Of a stretch of 40,986 nucleotides of DNA, positions 6,453 to 40,986 are shown one piece after another. The notes beneath the pieces were generated by a model. That model did not search any database, was not told the origin of the DNA, and saw only the letters and a program-made list of their open reading frames with translations. How positions within the stretch are numbered: the stretch's first letter is position 1; the number at the start of each line of letters is the position of its first letter. Where the stretch lies: the NCBI GenBank assembly GCA_034005005.1, contig JAVEVO010000055.1:1-40986 (forward strand). Direction: 5' to 3'. The stretch is from Myxococcota bacterium (GTDB lineage Bacteria > Myxococcota_A > JAVEVO01). The position numbers were made by a program, and so were the translations under genes.

Positions 6453-8159
6453 TCAGCTCCGTCCCGGCGGCCGGGCCGGGGGCCGGCGGCGGTTCAGGCG
6501 GAGCTGCGCCCGGGGGAACAGCAGCGTCCGCCAGAAGAAGGCCCGCAAGGTCGGCATGAAGCGGGCGGGGGCCGCGAGCAGCCGGCCGATCAGCTCGAGG
6601 GTCAGCCGGGCCATGAGCAGCGGTCGGCGGCCCATGAGCCGGGTGGCCCGGAGGACGACCTTCGTCGCGAAGCGCAGCATGTACTGCTGATACTTGTCGA
6701 CGATGTACCAGATCTCCAGCTCCGGTGTCTCGACCATCGTCGGCATGAACAGCATGTAGGGGATCTTGCCCATGCGCTCGTAGGGACGGGCGTCGATCAG
6801 CCAGCCGTTGCGCTCACACCTGGCATACAGCTCCGTCCCCGGATAGGGCTTGTAGATCGAGAAGAAGGGTACTGTCCCGAAGCGGTCGAACAGGGAGAAC
6901 GCGTAGCGGAGGGTCTGATCGACGGTCTCCTTGCTCTCGCCGGGTAGCCCGAAGATGAACAGGCCGTTGTTGTCGAGCTCCAGCTCCCGGCAGAGGGCCA
7001 GGGTCTGCTCGACGTCGGTCAGGAGGAGCTCTTTGTTGGCGAGGGTGTCGAGCACCTCCTGGGAGCCGGACTCGATGCCGAACATCAGGTAGACGCAGCC
7101 CGTGCGCCGGCAGAGCGCGACGAGCTCCCGGTCGAAGCGGTCGGCCCGCACGCCGTTGGGGGTGTCCCAGGTGAGGTCGAGGTCGGCGCAGACCATCCCC
7201 TCGAGGATCGCCCGCAGCCGCTCCCGGTCGAGGGAGAGGTTGTCGTCCTCGAAGTGGACGTGGCGCACCCCGTGGTCCCGGGCGAGGAGGGCGAGCTGCG
7301 CGACCACGAAGGCGGACGAGTGGCGCCGGAACGCGTGCCCCATGGTGAGCTGGATCGAGCAGAAGCTGCAGCGGTAGGGGCAGCCGCGGCTGGTGATCAG
7401 GGTCACCGCCCGGTCGGTCCCGGGCAGATCGATGCTCTGGCGCGAGGGAAAGCCCAGGCGATTGAGTCGAAAGTACTGCTCGAAGTCGAGGCCCTCCCAG
7501 AGGGGCGGGATCGAGTCGAGATCCTCGAGGAACTCCGGCGCGTTGCGCTGCAGGGTGCCGTCGTCGCGCAGCCAGGCCACGCCGGGCGCGGTGCGGGGCT
7601 CCTCGCCCTGCTGCAGCCGCTGCAGCAGGGTCGTGAAGGCGATCTCGCCCTCGCCGAGCACCAGCAGGTCGAACGCGGGCGCCCGCGCCAGGTAGCGCTC
7701 CGGCTGCATGCTGACGTCGGTGCCGCCGGCGATGAGCAGGGCCGCGGGGAAGCGCTCCCGCAGCCGGCGGGCGAGCTCGAGCGCGTCCAGGAAGAAGGTC
7801 TCCGCGGCCACGGACAACCCGATGACGTCGGGCTGGAACTCCTCGGCGCGCCTCAGGATCTCGTCGAAGTCCAGGCCGAACAGCACCGGCGGGGGCTGCC
7901 GCTCGAGCCGGGCGAGGTCGGGGTAGGCCAGCGCGTCGAGGAGCTGTACCTCGACCCCGGGCAGCCGCCGCGCCGCGCTCGCCAGGTACAGCAGGGCGAG
8001 GGGCACGCCGACCCAGGGGCCGTCGGGGTAGACCAGGCTGCTGAAGGTGCCGGGTGGGCGGATGAGCAGGACCCGCAAGGGCTTCGGCCCCGCGACCCCC
8101 GGGGCCGGCTCCCCCGCGGTGAGCAATCCTCTCTCGTCAGCGGCGGACGCGTCGTCCAC
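6453..8159 (-). CDS. B12-binding (class B) radical SAM enzyme
   Basis: The radical SAM cluster motif SRGCPYRCSFCS (CxxxCxxC) sits in mid-protein. An N-terminal Rossmann-like B12-binding region (VIGLSVAAE...LLIAGGTD) precedes it. The family is typical of C-methylating or C-C bond-forming tailoring enzymes. The GTG start at 8159 lies about 23 nt inside the 3' end of the upstream GT2 gene. Confidence 0.85.
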   Translation of the reverse strand: MDDASAADERGLLTAGEPAPGVAGPKPLRVLLIRPPGTFSSLVYPDGPWVGVPLALLYLASAARRLPGVEVQLLDALAYPDLARLERQPPPVLFGLDFDEILRRAEEFQPDVIGLSVAAETFFLDALELARRLRERFPAALLIAGGTDVSMQPERYLARAPAFDLLVLGEGEIAFTTLLQRLQQGEEPRTAPGVAWLRDDGTLQRNAPEFLEDLDSIPPLWEGLDFEQYFRLNRLGFPSRQSIDLPGTDRAVTLITSRGCPYRCSFCSIQLTMGHAFRRHSSAFVVAQLALLARDHGVRHVHFEDDNLSLDRERLRAILEGMVCADLDLTWDTPNGVRADRFDRELVALCRRTGCVYLMFGIESGSQEVLDTLANKELLLTDVEQTLALCRELELDNNGLFIFGLPGESKETVDQTLRYAFSLFDRFGTVPFFSIYKPYPGTELYARCERNGWLIDARPYERMGKIPYMLFMPTMVETPELEIWYIVDKYQQYMLRFATKVVLRATRLMGRRPLLMARLTLELIGRLLAAPARFMPTLRAFFWRTLLFPRAQLRLNRRRPPARPPGRS

Positions 8160-31261: not shown

Positions 31262-34199
<2,938 letters not shown>

Positions 34200-34376
34200 G
34201 CCCCTGCACCTCCGGCGCGCCCGCGAGGCTTGGGAGCGCCCCTGATTCCGTGTTCGAACCGCGGCAGCATCGCATGACCGGCCGGCGGAGTCGACGGGTT
34301 GGGGTGGCCGCGCGCCCCTCGCCGGTGTAGGGTGGCGTGGTCGGGCCGGTCGTGCGGTCGGCCCCGGGAGTGACTC
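34200..34376. promoter_or_regulatory. divergent intergenic region between MVP-operon start and HMG-CoA synthase gene (promoters expected, none confidently identified)
   Basis: A 177-bp non-coding gap separates two divergent starts that each have good ribosome-binding sites. It includes a relatively AT-rich core gattccgtgttcgaaccgcggcagcatcgcatgac. Confidence 0.3.
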
Positions 34377-35906
34377 GTGATCGAGCGGTTGGGCAGCTCC
34401 CCCTTTGGCATCAGCGGCTTCGCCCTCTGCGTGCCCCGTCCCCGGGTCCAGCTCGCGCAGTGGTGCCGCTGGACCGGCCGGAGCTGGCCCGCGCTGCAGG
34501 CCCGGGTGGGGGAGAGCTTCCGGCTCTGCGGTCCGGGCGAGTCGATCTACACCCTGGCGGCCGGGGCGGTCTTGCGCCTGATCCGCGCCCACGACGTCGA
34601 CCCGCGCCGGGTCGGGCTGCTCGCGCTCGGCACCGAGTCGAGCACCGACAACTCCGCGGGCGCGGTGATCCTCAAGGGGATGCTCGACGAGGCCCTCGTC
34701 CGCCTGGGGCGCCCGCCCCTCGCCCGGAGCTGCGAGGTCCCCGAGGTCAAGCACGCCTGCCTCGGTGGGGTGTACGCGCTCAAGGCCGCCCTGCGCTACG
34801 TCGCCGGCGATGGCCGCGGGCGACAGGCCATCGTCGTCGCCGCGGACCGGGCCCTGTACGCCCGGGGCAGCACCGGCGAGGAGACCCAGGGCGCGGGCGC
34901 GGTCGCCCTGCTCGTGGAGGAGGCCCCCCGCCTGCTCACCGTCGATCTCCTCCGGGCCGGCTCCGTCGCCCAGTACCGGGGGCCCGACTTCCGCAAGCCC
35001 CTGCTCGGCCCGCCGGCCGCCCCCGGGCTGCCGGCCCTCCCCCGGGAGAACCTCGAGCACCCCGTCTTCAACGGCCGCTACACCACGGTCTGCTACATCG
35101 ACGGGGTGCGCGGCGCGGTGGAGGAGCTGCTCGCCCGCTCGGGGCTGCCGGCCCGGAGGCTCTACCACGAGGTGGCCGCGGTCTTCATGCACCGGCCCTA
35201 CCATCGGCTGCCCTACAACGCGCTCGCGGCCCTGTACCTGTGGGCCCTGCGGGAGGCGCCTGAGCATCAGGAGGAGCTGAAGTCCCATTGCGATGCCGCC
35301 GAGGTGGACTTCGGTACCGTGATGGCCGAGCTCGCGAGTCACCCGGACCTCTACGCCGGCTTCCTCGCCGGGCAGCACGGCGGCGAGGTCTACGCTGCGG
35401 CCATGCAGGTCGCGCGCCACTTTCGCACCAGCGCGAAGTTCGCCGAGGTGGTGGCCGGGAAGATGCGGCTCGGCGTCCAGACGATGCGGGAGCTCGGCAA
35501 CCTCTACAGCGCGGCCCTGCCGGCCTGGATCGCGGCCGGGCTCGTCGAGGCCCGGGCGGAGGGGGTGGAGCTCGCGGGGGAGCTGCTGCTGGCCATCGGC
35601 TATGGCAGCGGCGACGCGGCCGAGGCCCTCCCCCTCCGGGTGGTGCCGGGCTGGCAGCAGGCCGCGGGCCGGATCGGCCTGACCGCGGCCCTCGCCGCCC
35701 CCCTCGACCTGGATGCGGAGCAGTACGCAGCCCTGCACGCGGGGGGCGCGCCCCCCGGGTTCGCGAGCGAGCCGGCGGGCGGGTTCGCGGTGGCGCGCGT
35801 CGGGACCGCGGCCGGGCCCACGGTCTGGGACCTCGGCGTCGACTACCACCGGTTCCAGGACGAGGGGCAGAGGCCCGACCCGACAGGCTCGGCGGTCGAG
35901 GGTTGA
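34377..35906 (+). CDS. hydroxymethylglutaryl-CoA synthase family protein
   Basis: Motifs GTESSTDNSAG, the active-site Cys region HACLGGVYALKAAL, and the C-terminal GYGSGDAAEA. The GTG start has GGGAG 7 nt upstream. Length is 509 aa. Confidence 0.8.
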   Translation: MIERLGSSPFGISGFALCVPRPRVQLAQWCRWTGRSWPALQARVGESFRLCGPGESIYTLAAGAVLRLIRAHDVDPRRVGLLALGTESSTDNSAGAVILKGMLDEALVRLGRPPLARSCEVPEVKHACLGGVYALKAALRYVAGDGRGRQAIVVAADRALYARGSTGEETQGAGAVALLVEEAPRLLTVDLLRAGSVAQYRGPDFRKPLLGPPAAPGLPALPRENLEHPVFNGRYTTVCYIDGVRGAVEELLARSGLPARRLYHEVAAVFMHRPYHRLPYNALAALYLWALREAPEHQEELKSHCDAAEVDFGTVMAELASHPDLYAGFLAGQHGGEVYAAAMQVARHFRTSAKFAEVVAGKMRLGVQTMRELGNLYSAALPAWIAAGLVEARAEGVELAGELLLAIGYGSGDAAEALPLRVVPGWQQAAGRIGLTAALAAPLDLDAEQYAALHAGGAPPGFASEPAGGFAVARVGTAAGPTVWDLGVDYHRFQDEGQRPDPTGSAVEG

Positions 35907-35972
35907 TCCCCACCCCCCGCCCTGGCTAAGCTCCAGGAGTCTGTGCCCCGTGCGTCCCCCCGGAGGTCGGCC

Positions 35973-37154
35973 ATGAGGTGTCGAGGTCTGCGTCCTGGCG
36001 GCCGCCCGGCCCGCTTCCGCTTCCCCGTCTGGCCGTTGCCGTTCGTCTTGCTCGGGCTCGGCCTCGCGGGCTGCAGCCTCACGGGGGTCGCCGGCCCCCT
36101 CGGGGCCCTGCTGCTCGTGCTCTCCCTGGCCCTCGGGCTCGGTGGCTGCCTCGCGGACTATGCCCGGCCCGCGGGGCGCACCGGCGAGGACGGGGGCGAG
36201 GGCGCGGACGCCGGGGGCGGGGGCGCGGACGCCGGGGGCGGGGGCTTCGACGGTGGGGGAGCCGCGGACGCCGGGACGCCCGACCTCGGCGACGTCCTCG
36301 CTGACCGTGACGGGGACGGCGTCCCGGATCGCGTCGACAACTGTCCCCTGGTCGCCAACCCGGCTCAGGAGGACGCGGACCGGGACGGCTGGGGCGATGC
36401 GTGCAGCCTACCCTGGGGCCTCTCTCCCTGCTGCGGCCCGGAGTGCGGGTACGACAGCGACGGCGACGGCCTCGCCGATCCCCTCGACCTCTGCCCCTGG
36501 ACCCCCGACCCCGCGTCCCGGGACGATGACGGCGACCGGCTCGGCGACGCCTGCGAGCTCACGGACGATCAGGACGGAGACGGCGTCCCCGATCGGCTGG
36601 ACAACTGCCCGCTGGTCGCCAACCCCGACCAGGCCAACACCGACGGCGAGGGCGACTTCACGGACCAGTACGGCGACGCCTGCGACCTGTGCCCCTACCC
36701 CGATATCGTCACTCCCTGCGGGGAGTTGTGCTGCTACGACGCGGACGGTGACGGGGTCGTCGGGGGCTACCTCCCCGCGGCCTCCGCCGGCTGTCCGACG
36801 AGGCCCGGGCTGCTGGACGACGTCTGTCCCTTCGTCCACGACCCCGAGCAGCGCGACGGGGACGGCGACCGGGTGGGCGATCGCTGTGACAACTGCCCGA
36901 CGGTGCCCAACCCCTTCCAGCTCGACCGGGACGGCGACGGGGTCGGGGACCTGTGCGCTCCTGCTGCGAAGCCCTTCGGCCCCTTCGGCTCCCGCACGCC
37001 GGAGCGGCAGCGGCTCCTCGAGCGGCTGCTGGCGGAGGGCGTCGTGCCGGCGCCGGTCTTCCTCGACGTCTACCCGGGTGAGCGCGCGCTGGCTCTGCAG
37101 GCCTTGCGCCGAGGCCTGCGCGTGCGCTTCGGCCTGGGCCGGGACCTCGCGTGA
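35973..37154 (+). CDS. lipoprotein with thrombospondin type-3 (TSP3) Ca-binding repeats, Cys-rich
   Basis: Lipobox [10 protein letters not shown]. The motif DxDxDGxxDxxDNCPxxxNPxQxDxD recurs 5 or more times ([34 protein letters not shown] ...). About 20 Cys are present. The GGAGG ribosome-binding site precedes the ATG at 35973. Confidence 0.8.
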
Positions 37155-38203
37155 CCCTCGACCCGGCGCTGGCCCGGGCCTCCCTCGCCCTCGAGGTCAC
37201 CACCCGCTGCGCGTGGCGCTGCGCCCATTGCTACAACCCCGGGCCCGAGGATGCGGCCGCGCCCCGGGAGGAGCTGCCCGCCGCCGAGCTGGTCGGCTTG
37301 ACCCGCGCGGCCTTGCAGGCGAGCGGCCGGCGCCGGGTGCAGGTCACGGGGGGCGAGCCCCTGCAGCGCGACGACCTGCTGTCGATCCTGCGCGGGCTGC
37401 GGCAGGGGGGCGCGCAGCTCTCCCTGGCGACGAGCGGTGACGGGCTCGACGCGCCGCTCGCCCGGGAGCTCGCTCGGCTCGGGGTCGGCCCGGTCCAGCT
37501 CAGCTTGCTCGCGGCGCGCCGGGAGCTGCACGACCGGCTCAAGGGTCCGGGCAGCTTCGACAGCACCCTCGGGGCCATCGGCCATCTGCGCCGGCAGGGC
37601 CTCCCCGTGTCCGTCGCCTTCGTGTGCCGGCAGGACAACGCCGGGGAGTTCGCCGGGGTCCTCGAGCTCTGTCATGCCCTCGGCGTGCCGGCCATCGCGT
37701 TCAACCGCCTCTGCCTGGCCGGCGGGCGGTCGGTGCACAGCGCGGCGCTGTCCGCCTCGCCCGCGCAGCTCCGCGGTTGCCTCGACCTCGCGGAGTGGGC
37801 GGTGGTCCGCCTCGGGCTGCGGGTCCAGGTCGCAATCACCCTGCCCCACTGCCTCGTCGACACGGCGCGCACGCCGCATCTGCGCTTCGGCGGCTGCTCC
37901 CTGGCCAGCGACGTGCCCGGCTACACCCTCGATCCGGCAGGCAACCTGCGCGCCTGCAGCATCTCCTCGACGGTCCTCGGCAACCTCGGCCAGGAGAGCT
38001 GGGACGCCATCGTCGCGCGTGCCCGGCGGGAGTACTTCCCGGCCCGGACCGCGCTCTCGGCAGCCTGTGGAGCCTGCGCCCAGCGGGCGCGCTGCCGGGG
38101 CGGCTGCCGGGAGACCGCCTGGAGCCTGCACCGGGCGCCCGGGGGGGACGATCCCCTCGCCAGCCCCGCGCACCGGCTCCCCCTCACCCCCGCGGGAGAC
38201 TGA
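37151..38203 (+). CDS. radical SAM / SPASM-domain maturase (anSME / peptide-modifying type)
   Basis: N-terminal CAWRCAHC (Cx3Cx2C). C-terminal SPASM cysteines end with [14 protein letters not shown] (Cx2Cx5Cx3C). Length is 350 aa. The GTG start overlaps the TGA of the TSP3 lipoprotein gene. Confidence 0.8.
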
Positions 38204-38219
38204 CCGGCGCGCCAGTCCC

Positions 38220-38248
38220 TTGACGCCGCCGTCGGGGATTCGTACACC
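38220..38248 (+). promoter_or_regulatory. candidate sigma-70-like promoter TTGACG-N17-TACACC upstream of panD
   Basis: Pattern-only call in the 90-bp gap before the 38294 start. Confidence 0.25.
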
Positions 38249-38293
38249 AGGCCGGGGCGGGGATCCTCGGCTGGCCGAGCGCGGAGCGGGACG

Positions 38294-38671
38294 ATGCAGC
38301 GTCGAATGCTCAAGAGCAAGATCCACCGGGCGACGGTGACCGCCGCCGACCTGAGCTACGAGGGGAGCGTCACCGTCGATCAGGTCCTGCTCCAGGCCGC
38401 GGACATCCTGCCGGGCGAGGCCGTCTGGATCTGGAACGTCACCAACGGGGCCCGGCTCGAGACCTACGCGCTGGAGGGGGAGCCCGGCTCCGGGGTGATC
38501 TGCATCAACGGCGCGGCCGCCCACCTCGTCCGGCCCGGCGATCTCGTCATCCTCGCCTCCTTCGTCCAGCTCGACGAGGCCGAGGTGCAGACCTTCCAGC
38601 CCCGGATCCTCTTCGTGGACGGGGCGAACCGGCTCGTCGCCGCACGCCCCGAGGTCCCCGGTCCCGCCTGA
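38294..38671 (+). CDS. panD: aspartate 1-decarboxylase
   Basis: 125 aa. [25 protein letters not shown] matches the PanD N-terminus, including the Gly-Ser self-cleavage site (YEGS). The NGAAAH...GD.VI pattern is conserved. Confidence 0.85.
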
Positions 38672-38716
38672 GCCCACCCCGTTGACCCCGGCGCGCTCTG
38701 GTGGGATCGTGCCCGG

Positions 38717-40114
38717 ATGATCCGTCGCGGCCCAGCCCTGGTCCTGCTTCTCCTGCTCGGACCGGGTGGTTGCTCGCCAGCGGGGGATCCGCCGCCGGCC
38801 GCGTGCGTCCCGGACGCGGTCACGGCCGCGCGCTGCCCCGCCGAGCGCCCGGCGCCGCCCCGGCTGCCGGGCCAGCGACTCGAGCATTCCCTGGCCGAGT
38901 TCTGGCTCGCCCGCATCCCGGAGCCGTCCCGGCTGCTCCTCGACGAGGAGGGGATCGCCCGCCTCAACCGCCGGCTGACCCGGCTGCGCGACCGGGGGGA
39001 GCCGGTGGGGCGCTGGGATCTCGGCTCCCGGGTCCTCGCCGCGGGCGAGCCGGAGCAGCTCCTCGACCGCCGGCTCACCCGGCTGCGGGAGCGGGTCCAC
39101 CGGGAGGAGCGGGTCGGGGCGCAGGGCGCGCCGGGCCGGGCGGTGCTCGCCGAGATCGAGGCCAACCTCCTGGCCAGCCAGCCCGCAGACGAGCTCCGGG
39201 TGGCCACGACCTCGACCGCGATCCGCTGTCAGCCCTCGGCGGCACCCTTGCTGGAGGCTCCCGGGCAGGAGGCCTTCGACACCCTGCAGTGCTCCCTGCT
39301 CTCCTTCGGCGAGCCCGTGCGTGTCCTGCGTAAGTCTTCGGATTTCTGGCTGATCTTGACCGAGTACGTGCAGGGCTGGGTCTCGCCGGCGGCCCTGGGG
39401 CCGCCCCTGGCGCCGGCGGAGCTCGCGGCCTACCGTCAAGCTCCCCGCTTCCTGGTGATCACCCAGGACCGGGCGCCGGTGCTCGCTGCGCCAGGGGGCG
39501 AGCTGCTCGGGGTCGCCCGCCTCGGCCAGCGCCTGCCCCTGCTGGACGCCACGGCCGCGGGGTATGCGGTCCGCGCGCCACACGTCGGAGGGCTGGGGCC
39601 GGCCTGGATCCCCGCGGGCAGCGGCGCTCCCGGGTACCTGCCCCTGACCCGGGAGACGGTCTTCCGGCTCGCCTTCTCCCTGCTGCACAGTCCCTACGGC
39701 TGGGGCGGCGCGGGAGACGGCCGGGACTGCTCGGCCTTCCTGATGGACCTCTTCGCGGTCTGCGGCCTCGCGCTGCCCCGCAACTCCGCCCAGCAGGCCG
39801 AGGCCGGCAGCGAGCAGGTGGACCTCGCGGCTCAGCCCCTGGGCGGGCGGGTCGCGGCCATCGAGGCCGCGTCCCGGCGAGGTCTGGTCCTGCTCTACCT
39901 GCCGGGCCACATCATGCTGTACCTGGGGCGCGACGGGGACGACCTGTACGCCTTGCACCAGCTCTCCGGCTACCTCGTGCCCTGCCCTGGTGGTGGGGAG
40001 ACCAAGGTCCGGGTGAACCGGGTCGCGGTCACCCCCCTCACCCTCGGGCGGGGGACCTCCCAGGGGAGCCTGCTGGAGCGGCTCACGCGGCTGACGGTGC
40101 TGGGACCGCGCTAG
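38717..40114 (+). CDS. lipoprotein with C-terminal NlpC/P60 cysteine peptidase domain
   Basis: Lipobox LLLLGPGGCS. The C-terminal region YGWGGAGDGRDCSAFLMDLFAVCGLALPRNS ... GHIMLYLG supplies the catalytic Cys and His of NlpC/P60. The middle region may contain SH3b-like repeats. Confidence 0.75.
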   Translation: MIRRGPALVLLLLLGPGGCSPAGDPPPAACVPDAVTAARCPAERPAPPRLPGQRLEHSLAEFWLARIPEPSRLLLDEEGIARLNRRLTRLRDRGEPVGRWDLGSRVLAAGEPEQLLDRRLTRLRERVHREERVGAQGAPGRAVLAEIEANLLASQPADELRVATTSTAIRCQPSAAPLLEAPGQEAFDTLQCSLLSFGEPVRVLRKSSDFWLILTEYVQGWVSPAALGPPLAPAELAAYRQAPRFLVITQDRAPVLAAPGGELLGVARLGQRLPLLDATAAGYAVRAPHVGGLGPAWIPAGSGAPGYLPLTRETVFRLAFSLLHSPYGWGGAGDGRDCSAFLMDLFAVCGLALPRNSAQQAEAGSEQVDLAAQPLGGRVAAIEAASRRGLVLLYLPGHIMLYLGRDGDDLYALHQLSGYLVPCPGGGETKVRVNRVAVTPLTLGRGTSQGSLLERLTRLTVLGPR

Positions 40115-40436
40115 CGCGGCCGGGGTCCGGCGGGGCTCATCATTGATCGCATCCTTTGAGACACATTCTTTCGTCCTGCCAGGGCAAAACCGAATTGTGC
40201 TCCCTCGAACAAGCTGCGGCGCTCGACACTGCCGCGCATCAAAGTGATCCACCCCGGTGGGCCGTTGCGTTTCCGATGCCCGCCAAGCGCCGCGATGGCG
40301 TTGTTTGGCTGGAGGATGGTGGGATTGTTCGGGAGCTTCATCCAGTTCGCGGCCGCCATGTCGAGCACAGCCAGTTCCAGCTCGGAGAGCACCCAGCTCG
40401 CCGGGGTGTCGGGCTGCTCATCCGTCAAGTGGCGCA

Positions 40437-40528
40437 GCGTCACTCCGGCGGTTCGTGCGCAAAAGGCGATCGAACTGGCCGGTTGAAGCGTCACTCCGGC
40501 GGTTCGTGCGCAAAAGGCGATCGAACTG
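40437..40528. repeat. two identical 41-nt direct repeats (gcgtcactccggcggttcgtgcgcaaaaggcgatcgaactg) spaced with a 51-nt period
   Basis: Direct reading gives copies at about 40437-40477 and about 40488-40528. The region is non-coding and of lower GC. Confidence 0.85.
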
Positions 40529-40746
40529 ACCGATCAGGAGTCATCTGGGGCGTTGTCGCACTCGTCTCGGGACTCCACCGGTGGCGGGGTCCGTTCGACC
40601 ACCTCGCTGGCCCGACGCGACGATGCGCGATCCGCCGCCAGGATCGCGTCCCCGAGCTGAAAGGGCGATCGCCGAGATCTTCAGGATCATGAGCCAGTGG
40701 GACGGCTGAACGTCCTCGAGGACAGCTCTTCGTGGCATTGAGGGGC

Positions 40747-40986
40747 CATCAGTCGTCCAATCGTCATCGAATGCAACGCTCCGTTGCACTGGCGGGCGAT
40801 CAGTCGTCCAATCGTCATCGAATGCAACGCTCCGTTGCACTGAGGGGCGATCAGTCGTCCAATCGTCATCGAATGCAACGCTCCGTTGCACTGAGGGGCG
40901 ATCAGTCGTACAATCGTCATCGAATGCAACGCTCCGATGCACTGGCGGGCGATCAGTCGTCCAAACGTCATCGCATGCAACTCTCC
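40747..40986. repeat. 51-bp tandem repeat array, at least 4.7 copies, truncated by window end; each unit contains a 7-bp stem hairpin tgcaacg-ctc-cgttgca
   Basis: The unit gatcagtcgtccaatcgtcatcgaatgcaacgctccgttgcactg(a/g)(g/c)gggc repeats head to tail with 1-3 substitutions per copy. GC is about 53%. Confidence 0.9.

Follow-up and report, generated by a model that had tools for sequence, protein, structure and literature searches.

To our knowledge, almost all characterized maturases of the radical S-adenosylmethionine (SAM)/SPASM type act on short leader-bearing peptides, and we know of only two, anSME and QhpD, that act on proteins. The ranthipeptide and sactipeptide synthases PapB, CteB, SkfB, and AlbA link Cys sulfur atoms of Cys-rich substrates to carbons of Asp, Thr, or other residues. 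An RRE domain at the N-terminus is common to these enzymes, which work on short leader-bearing peptides; PapB crosslinks CX3D motifs. PqqA, a peptide of ~24 residues, is presented to PqqE by PqqD. QhpD makes three Cys-to-Asp/Glu thioethers in QhpC, a protein subunit of the same operon; the 28-residue leader of QhpC is bound by QhpD and removed by the QhpE protease, and export proceeds via an ABC transporter (PMC7876137). Here we describe a gene pair on a contig of a Myxococcota bacterium (GenBank assembly GCA_034005005.1, contig JAVEVO010000055.1, positions 1 to 40,986 of the forward strand; this whole stretch of 40,986 nucleotides is called the window). Gene A encodes a putative lipoprotein with thrombospondin type 3 (TSP3) repeats, and gene B encodes a radical SAM/SPASM enzyme. 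With a probability of roughly 60%, we take the gene B product to be an RRE-less SPASM maturase dedicated to the TSP3 lipoprotein, which it would modify in the cytoplasm, ahead of Sec export, at sequence modules specific to the family. We infer all three elements of this reading: that the partner is the substrate, that modification precedes export, and that the modules are the site. The elements of the pair are as follows.

35962-35966, + strand: Shine-Dalgarno-like GGAGG, 6 nt 5' of the gene A ATG (read from the sequence)
35973-37154, + strand: gene A, 393-residue TSP3-repeat lipoprotein, the presumed substrate (open reading frame, ATG start)
37151-37154, + strand: GTGA, in which the GTG start of gene B overlaps the TGA stop of gene A (sequence)
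37151-38203, + strand: gene B, 350-residue radical SAM/SPASM enzyme without an RRE domain (open reading frame, GTG start; Pfam Radical_SAM)

The sequence features claimed in a preliminary description of this DNA, namely the lipobox-bearing TSP3 protein, the GTGA overlap, and the SPASM enzyme, are all present at the positions it gave. That description also drew an analogy with QhpD. The locus indeed resembles QhpD/QhpC in that a radical SAM gene lies beside a gene for a Cys- and Asp/Glu-rich protein, and QhpD acts in the cytoplasm before its product reaches the periplasm (PMC7876137). Unlike the small, leader-bearing QhpC, the gene A product has 393 residues and a Sec-type lipoprotein signal, and it comes with no leader, protease gene, or exporter gene; qhpA, qhpB, qhpE, and qhpG are all missing from the window. 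The conserved enzyme-partner pair and the lack of an RRE domain support the preliminary reading in part. The QhpD analogy itself is loose: a leader and ABC transporter stand against a lipoprotein signal, and the enzyme falls outside the QhpD family. Judging by sequence, the pair appears to work like QhpD/QhpC and anSME/sulfatase, yet it lies outside the QhpD, anSME, PqqE, and sactipeptide/ranthipeptide synthase families.

Conservation of the gene pair

The preliminary description staked its proposal on the two genes being neighbors elsewhere. The pairing is real and specific: it was recovered from both search directions, in 16 independent metagenomic or metagenome-assembled genome (MAG) loci whose flanking genes are otherwise unrelated. 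Conserved adjacency with variable flanks is a hallmark of maturase-substrate pairs of the kind known for ribosomally made peptides with post-translational modifications (RiPPs). Starting from the enzyme, 34 metagenomic homologs were found at E<1e-40. Among close homologs with enough flanking sequence, every one examined at ≥42% identity has a TSP3 protein encoded immediately upstream, usually with an overlap of 4-14 nt (metagenomic loci L001, L003, L004/L005, L006, L007, and L008). The same arrangement is seen in loci L009, L011, and L022 of the genome collection. Starting from the partner, exact-protein look-ups place the enzyme gene directly downstream in all four cases with enough flank (L169, L170, L171, and L172). 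A partner-seeded metagenome scan was swamped by generic TSP3 proteins and was used as a control; an enzyme homolog occurs within 3 kb in 0 of these 80 metagenomic loci encoding generic TSP3 proteins.

The genes overlap by 4-14 nt in seven of the 10 loci with called genes and are separated by 3-100 nt in the other three. In two of the 16 loci (L030 and L069), the enzyme belongs to the TSP3 clade described below and a partner of the same architecture lies immediately downstream. The adjacency thus survives a reversal of gene order.

Two additional genes were observed beside the pair in individual loci. In L004 (7430-11233, minus strand) and L169 (7-3795, minus strand) the pair adjoins the gene for a protein of 1,262-1,267 residues with TSP_3 repeats and Cu-binding MopE motifs. 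In L169 this gene is upstream of the pair and in L004 it is downstream; it was not seen in the window or the other loci. In L003 (7090-8205, minus strand) and L170 (6166-7251, minus strand) a second radical SAM gene is convergent to the SPASM gene. Its presence is probably coincidental, because the L003 copy is HemN/HemW-like and part of a lepA-hemN neighborhood.

The putative TSP3-repeat lipoprotein

The gene A product divides into the following segments, where AF2 denotes an AlphaFold2 model and pLDDT its per-residue confidence score.

35973-36074, + strand: Arg-rich n-region, short hydrophobic stretch, and lipobox L-A-G-C34, the lipobox at 36063-36074 (sequence)
36075-36149, + strand: second hydrophobic helix, rich in Gly, with the invariant G-C59 at its end (AF2 helix, residues 41-64)
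36150-36299, + strand: acidic, Gly-rich disordered linker (AF2 pLDDT <50 for residues 64-102)
36300-36962, + strand: TSP3 calcium-binding "wire", residues 110-330, with five canonical DNCP...GDxC Cys pairs (motif scan, family conservation, Foldseek)
36423-36470, + strand: family-specific module 1, residues 151-166 (conserved in ≥94% of 64 members)
36711-36767, + strand: family-specific module 2, residues 247-265, the signature motif and candidate modification site (conservation)
36990-37151, + strand: C-terminal three-helix domain, residues 340-393 (AF2 helices at residues 342-354, 360-366, and 371-385)

The protein is identical to a public sequence from a Myxococcota MAG (P0059) annotated as "thrombospondin type 3 repeat-containing protein". 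It matches Pfam TSP_3 (PF02412) over four stretches with 92 bits against a cutoff of 25, and contains 21 Cys and 58 Asp residues (14.7% Asp). The AF2 model has a mean pLDDT of 78 and features two N-terminal hydrophobic helices, at residues 22-32 and 41-64. The lipobox is canonical, with G33 and C34 kept in 63 of 64 family members and C59 in all 64. These two N-terminal Cys residues are 23-28 residues apart in essentially all TSP3-type members, and also in many partners of the GPCL type introduced below. The linker varies freely in length and sequence among homologs; in the window, it includes GGGADAG units encoded by a 21-bp tandem repeat (36191-36245, 2.6 copies, 97% match, Tandem Repeats Finder).

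Like thrombospondin and COMP, the gene A product has a genuine TSP3 calcium-binding wire with DNCP...GDxC Cys pairs. The motif scan finds four N-type and four C-type TSP3 motifs, Foldseek matches the wire to 1yo8, 2rhp, 3fby, and 1ux6, and identity to human thrombospondin-1, thrombospondin-2, and COMP is 36-40% over ~240 columns. Compared with generic TSP3 proteins, it has three extra parts, namely PC(C)GxxC-x-[Y/L]-DxDGDG modules, an N-terminus with two Cys residues, and C-terminal helices. It also differs from MtsC, scoring 115.7 bits against the NF047638 cutoff of 350 and lacking a MYXO-CTERM hydrophobic sorting tail; AF2 models the C-terminus as an amphipathic three-helix domain instead. 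This domain is well defined (mean pLDDT 85-97 over residues 341-380), includes the conserved R345 and G356, and has no significant PDB, Pfam, or NCBIfam match. It is a possible docking element for the enzyme.

Gene A encodes a genuine TSP3-repeat protein that belongs to a separate subfamily. The subfamily comprises ~65 protein clusters of 310-450 residues, which share one or two modules, the two N-terminal Cys residues, and the C-terminal helical domain. None of the three traits occurs in 59 generic TSP3 proteins (430-690 residues), and the module is also missing from the 80 generic TSP3 metagenomic loci. The modules have the common form (S/T)PC(C)GxxC-x-[Y/L]-DxDGDG, and in both the +3 position from the second module Cys is an Asp. 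In module 2, the invariant or nearly invariant residues are P248, C249, G250, C253, Y255, D256, D258, D260, G261, and G264. Every member retains one module or both: L172 lacks the CGxxC of module 2, has module 1, and still carries the enzyme gene, and in the short forms L007 and L022 only module 2 remains.

The radical SAM/SPASM enzyme

Two Cys-bearing regions define the gene B product.

37208-37231, + strand: CX3CX2C radical SAM motif CAWRCAHC, residues 20-27, with C20, C24, and C27 (sequence)
37850-38107, + strand: SPASM region with seven conserved Cys, C234, C249, C269, C306, C309, C315, and C319 (sequence, conservation)

These motifs mark the protein as a radical SAM enzyme of the SPASM type. 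The CX3CX2C motif is invariant in all 90 family enzymes examined. The SPASM Cys residues are spaced as C249-x14-G264-x4-C269 and C306-x2-C309-x5-C315-x3-C319 (CX2CX5CX3C, residues 306-319), and all seven are kept in 90 of 90 enzymes, or in 98% within the TCY clade described below. The Cx3Cx2C and terminal Cx2Cx5Cx3C reported earlier are thus in place, and the SPASM Cys residues align with those of PqqE and anSME. Pfam reports only Radical_SAM (PF04055, 72.5 bits against a cutoff of 29.5) and not SPASM (PF13186).

The AF2 model is of high confidence (mean pLDDT 91.7, predicted TM-score 0.90). The first strand of the radical SAM core spans residues 11-15 and is followed by the cluster loop; with the core beginning so near the N-terminus, at about residue 11, no space is left for an RRE domain ahead of it. 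Homologs are similarly compact, at 330-366 residues. Foldseek returns SkfB as the top match, along with PqqE, SuiB, and anSMEcpe, and the best reciprocal whole-chain TM-score, 0.70-0.73, is attained with anSMEcpe.

The preliminary description compared the enzyme with the anSME, QhpD, and sactisynthase families; by sequence, it belongs to none of them. No NCBIfam model reaches its cutoff with the gene B product. The best is PqqE (TIGR02109) with 91.7 bits against 381.35, followed by WgkB, AhbD, TIGR04053, and NirJ; the curated matches PqqE, WgkB, AhbD, and NirJ span 75-92 bits. Neither anSME nor QhpD has its model among the 25 best NCBIfam matches, whose scores are 37.8 bits or more, and the AlbA, StsB, and SkfB models are far below their cutoffs. 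The closest sequence in the PDB is PqqE 6c8v, with E 2.7e-14 for the single protein and 3.8e-34 for a 30-member family profile. anSME is found in the PDB by the family profile only (E 9e-15); phmmer with the single protein returns none at E≤0.001. As with the ranthipeptide and sactipeptide synthases PapB, CteB, SkfB, and AlbA, the enzyme is of the SPASM/twitch radical SAM kind and has SkfB as its top Foldseek match. It differs from them in having no RRE domain and in its partner, a large lipoprotein.

The Fe-S ligands were mapped through HMMER alignments and the ligand assignments for PqqE and anSMEcpe (PMC5715301). Counterparts of the auxiliary cluster I (Aux I) ligands are C249, C269, and C319, and those of the Aux II ligands are C306, C309, and C315. 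Cys315 occupies the position of Asp319, an Aux II ligand of PqqE (PMC5715301). The last Aux II ligand (PqqE C341, anSME C348) has no aligned Cys, with Ala337 at the position of PqqE C341, and PqqE C325 has no counterpart either. Enzymes of the TSP3 and GPCL clades have no Cys beyond C319, and an eighth Cys, at +7 after C319, is present only in the TCY clade. Judged from these alignments, Aux II appears to have an open iron site, which could bind a substrate thiolate.

The structural likeness to anSMEcpe raises the possibility that the enzyme abstracts the C-beta hydrogen of one motif Cys to yield formylglycine or a related carbonyl. We consider this outcome unlikely. In its favor, the architecture is the same as that of anSME, a minimal radical SAM plus SPASM enzyme of ~350-370 residues without an RRE domain, and anSME substrates are also whole, signal-bearing, export-bound proteins recognized at a short linear Cys motif. 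Furthermore, TCY-type partners may offer only one motif Cys, and their C-[Y/L]-x-P is reminiscent of C-x-P-x-R. The TSP3 partner resembles MtsC cell-cohesion proteins, though it remains below the cutoff of that model, and formylglycine would equip the exported protein with a reactive aldehyde that might serve, for instance, in covalent attachment or in cohesion between cells. The sequence evidence points the other way. C-x-[PA]-x-R occurs in only two of 61 family members and is absent from the protein in the window, there is no sulfatase gene near the pair, and the sequence link to anSME is weak, as described above for the NCBIfam models. The position of anSMEcpe Asp277, which lies next to the Aux I ligand and which we take to be the proposed catalytic base, is filled by the nearly invariant Ser270. 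C254 covaries with C240, as would a disulfide partner. Finally, anSME has eight SPASM Cys ligands against the seven that are universal in the gene B clade (PMC5715301). The formylglycine option of the preliminary description is weakened by the missing C-x-P/A-x-R motif and by the Ser270 substitution.

The sequence relationship to PqqE, which joins Glu to Tyr, suggests a different product, a C-C or C-O crosslink at Tyr255 (Leu in other members) similar to those made by PqqE, SuiB, and the triceptide and darobactin enzymes, with the Cys residues playing a structural role only. By sequence, no curated family and no solved structure is closer than PqqE, which aligns over the full length and likewise lacks a fused RRE domain. 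All three partner types keep a Tyr or Leu immediately following the Cys, and the Cys residues look disulfide-paired. Nevertheless, this product is quite improbable. The PqqE score is far below the cutoff (92 against 381 bits), the Asp319 ligand is replaced by Cys315 and C325 and C341 have no counterparts, and pqqA, pqqB, pqqC, and pqqD are all missing. The GPCL partners and module 1 have Leu in place of Tyr, which shows that the position can do without an aromatic ring.

Related enzymes and their partners

Relatives of the enzyme are numerous, with at least 476 in a species-representative genome collection and 2,396 at E≤1e-30 in a profile search of 1.84 billion representative proteins. A neighbor-joining tree of 90 enzymes resolves three clades, TSP3, GPCL, and TCY, that match the type of partner. 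This correspondence between enzyme clade and partner type is the strongest indirect evidence for an enzyme-substrate relation. The TSP3 clade is hosted by Myxococcota and "Deltaproteobacteria" MAGs, the GPCL clade by Myxococcota and Bradymonadales, and the TCY clade, the largest of the three, by Planctomycetota, Chloroflexota, and Armatimonadota.

The GPCL partners, which are lipoproteins, are built from 2-10 Asp/Pro-rich repeats that all include (V/I)GPCL, and have a ...LPxDVxxRL tail. The TCY partners are helical proteins of ~240-500 residues with a TAT or lipoprotein signal, the TAT signal being found in Chloroflexota, and one or two strictly conserved [AT][TS]CY[EDKA]P motifs; in some, this leaves a single motif Cys. 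TCY-type loci include L021, L026, L029, L041, L045, L054, L063, L070, L081, L085, and L088, among others. Neither the GPCL nor the TCY partners have a significant PDB, Pfam, or NCBIfam match, and the enzymes of both clades do not reach any NCBIfam cutoff. Each partner type has its own short Cys motif, PCGxxC for TSP3, (V/I)GPCL, and TCY(E/D)P. All three share a Cys whose next residue is Tyr or Leu, in many cases with a Pro and an acidic residue close by, and the partners of all clades bear Sec, lipoprotein, or TAT signals.

These distributions bear on the possibility that the enzyme has another function altogether. It could make or mature something else that the TSP3 protein needs, such as a cofactor, tetrapyrrole, or small molecule, or helix 2 of the partner could span the membrane and leave the TSP3 domain as a cytoplasmic scaffold or anchor. 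The AhbD and NirJ heme-pathway models score near PqqE (75-81 bits), the succession of a lipobox and a transmembrane-like helix leaves the topology open, and the case for modification of the partner is built from sequence and context. We regard such a function as quite unlikely, given that TSP3-type loci have no further conserved gene around the pair, that the enzyme subclades track the partner type, that adjacency survives the gene-order swap, and that export signals are found on the partners of every clade.

The GPCL loci always contain a third gene directly after the SPASM gene, which encodes a B12-binding radical SAM protein fused to a PCMT-like methyltransferase. This three-gene cassette was observed in loci L012-L039, L048, L053, and L082 (e.g., L014 3885-7979), the third-gene fusion being ~740 residues long, and no curated family covers any of its three genes. 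A third cassette gene was also considered for the TSP3 type and rejected, as the fusion is absent from TSP3-type loci, including the window. The window does encode a B12-binding radical SAM protein of 568 residues (6453-8159, minus strand). This protein has no PCMT domain, shares 27-28% identity with the fusion enzymes of the GPCL cassettes, and is encoded at a distance of 29 kb from the pair, so that a relationship is improbable. Enzyme-partner fusions were discarded as well, for the long matches of the representative search are fusions with other radical SAM domains or repeats and not with partners.

These enzymes may constitute a large unrecognized superfamily of RRE-less SPASM proteins, each of which would install an undescribed modification at a short Cys-[Y/L] motif in an intact protein destined for export. 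The clades extend over Myxococcota, Bradymonadales, Planctomycetota, Chloroflexota, and Armatimonadota. If the proposal is true, radical chemistry routinely builds crosslinks or protein-derived cofactors into bacterial surface proteins as well as into small RiPP peptides.

Proposed maturation of the TSP3 lipoprotein

In the maturation that we favor, genes A and B would form a dedicated two-gene cassette. The cytoplasmic enzyme would bind the new, unfolded, and not yet exported TSP3 lipoprotein directly; direct binding is proposed because the enzyme has no RRE domain and the partner no leader peptide. A 5'-deoxyadenosyl radical would then be used to modify the protein inside one or more of the (S/T)PC(C)GxxC-x-[Y/L]-DxDGDG modules, and the modified product would leave through Sec, receive its lipid, and fold with the help of calcium and disulfides. 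The lack of an RRE domain fits action on a whole protein, by analogy with anSME or QhpD, and the enzyme with the highest whole-chain structural similarity, anSMEcpe, has whole proteins as substrates.

With respect to chemistry, our tentative best guess is a C-S thioether from a module Cys to the nearby Asp or another residue, similar to those of QhpD and the ranthipeptides. A thioether is ranked first because of the Asp at +3 of the second module Cys, the apparently open Aux II site, and the QhpD precedent. We infer the order thioether, formylglycine oxidation, C-C crosslink, and an unrelated function or scaffold.

Several points weigh against this proposal. Modification of the gene A product is deduced from sequence and genomic context, and the chemistry is a candidate at this stage. 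By NCBIfam cutoffs, the gene B product is outside the QhpD, sactisynthase, and ranthipeptide synthase families. The single motif Cys of TCY partners fits a one-residue change better than a crosslink, and because conservation is equally high for the Cys and for the Tyr or Leu that comes next, a different residue could be the target. In addition, the lipobox followed by a transmembrane-like helix (residues 1-59, 35973-36149) makes the membrane topology of the gene A product uncertain.

The behavior of the Cys residues also argues against thioethers. Ten of the 21 belong to the canonical DNCP...GDxC pairs of the five TSP3 repeats. Across 64 partner sequences, the extra Cys residues are lost or gained pairwise: C240/C254 (nine members), C308/C328, C153/C158, and C249/C253 covary, C154 and C274 are both missing in the short forms, and two further Cys columns, not represented in the window protein, are present or absent together. 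C59 is the only unpaired invariant Cys of the TSP3 partners. Gain and loss in pairs is the behavior of disulfide partners, which thioether donors need not show. We have accordingly dropped Cys richness as evidence for thioethers. The preliminary count of about 20 Cys was right; the crosslinks that it was taken to hint at do not follow from it, as most of these residues are TSP3 pairs or covary like disulfides.

The C-terminal tails of TSP3 partners (R..A.L....G.L) and GPCL partners (...G.LPxDVxxRL) look alike. A hidden Markov model built from 12 GPCL tails gives E values of 0.4-2, which are not significant, and a common tail was rejected. At E<10, the model matches 32 of 61 TSP3-family members and 10 of 59 generic TSP3 proteins. 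The likeness is suggestive only, and its lack of significance is a further point against the proposal.

If the maturase reading is true, radical SAM protein maturation extends to the extracellular-matrix-type proteins of social bacteria, calcium-binding lipoproteins of 300-450 residues. Together with the GPCL and TCYEP sister systems, found in four further lineages, the pair would define a new and widespread enzyme-substrate family for which there is no Pfam or NCBIfam model. The literature search found no paper that joins radical SAM with thrombospondin (type 3), or SPASM with lipobox or Myxococcota. The system is easily testable, consisting of two genes and short candidate target motifs, with a mass shift as the read-out.

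Other features of the window

Three genes flank the pair on the same strand, and none of them recurs beside it in other genomes.

34377-35906, + strand: HMG-CoA-synthase-like gene, upstream neighbor (Pfam/NCBIfam)
38294-38671, + strand: panD, downstream neighbor (Pfam/NCBIfam)
38717-40114, + strand: SH3b/NlpC-P60 hydrolase gene, downstream neighbor (Pfam/NCBIfam)

The G+C content of the region is ~75%, and a promoter and terminator scan of 34200-38800, uninformative at this composition, gave no candidates. On the strand opposite to the pair and about 1.8 kb upstream of it, a 973-residue open reading frame (31269-34190, minus strand) encodes a bacterial homolog of the eukaryotic major vault protein, with MVP_shoulder (E 9.5e-17), Vault_3, and Vault_4 domains. 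A 51-bp tandem repeat of 5.0 copies (92% match) occupies 40731-40986 and reaches the contig end; a different 51-bp unit, present in 1.9 copies, is located nearby at 40436-40532. Read on the minus strand, the array at 40731-40986 encodes repeated "...SVAFDDDWTTDRPSVQR" peptide units.

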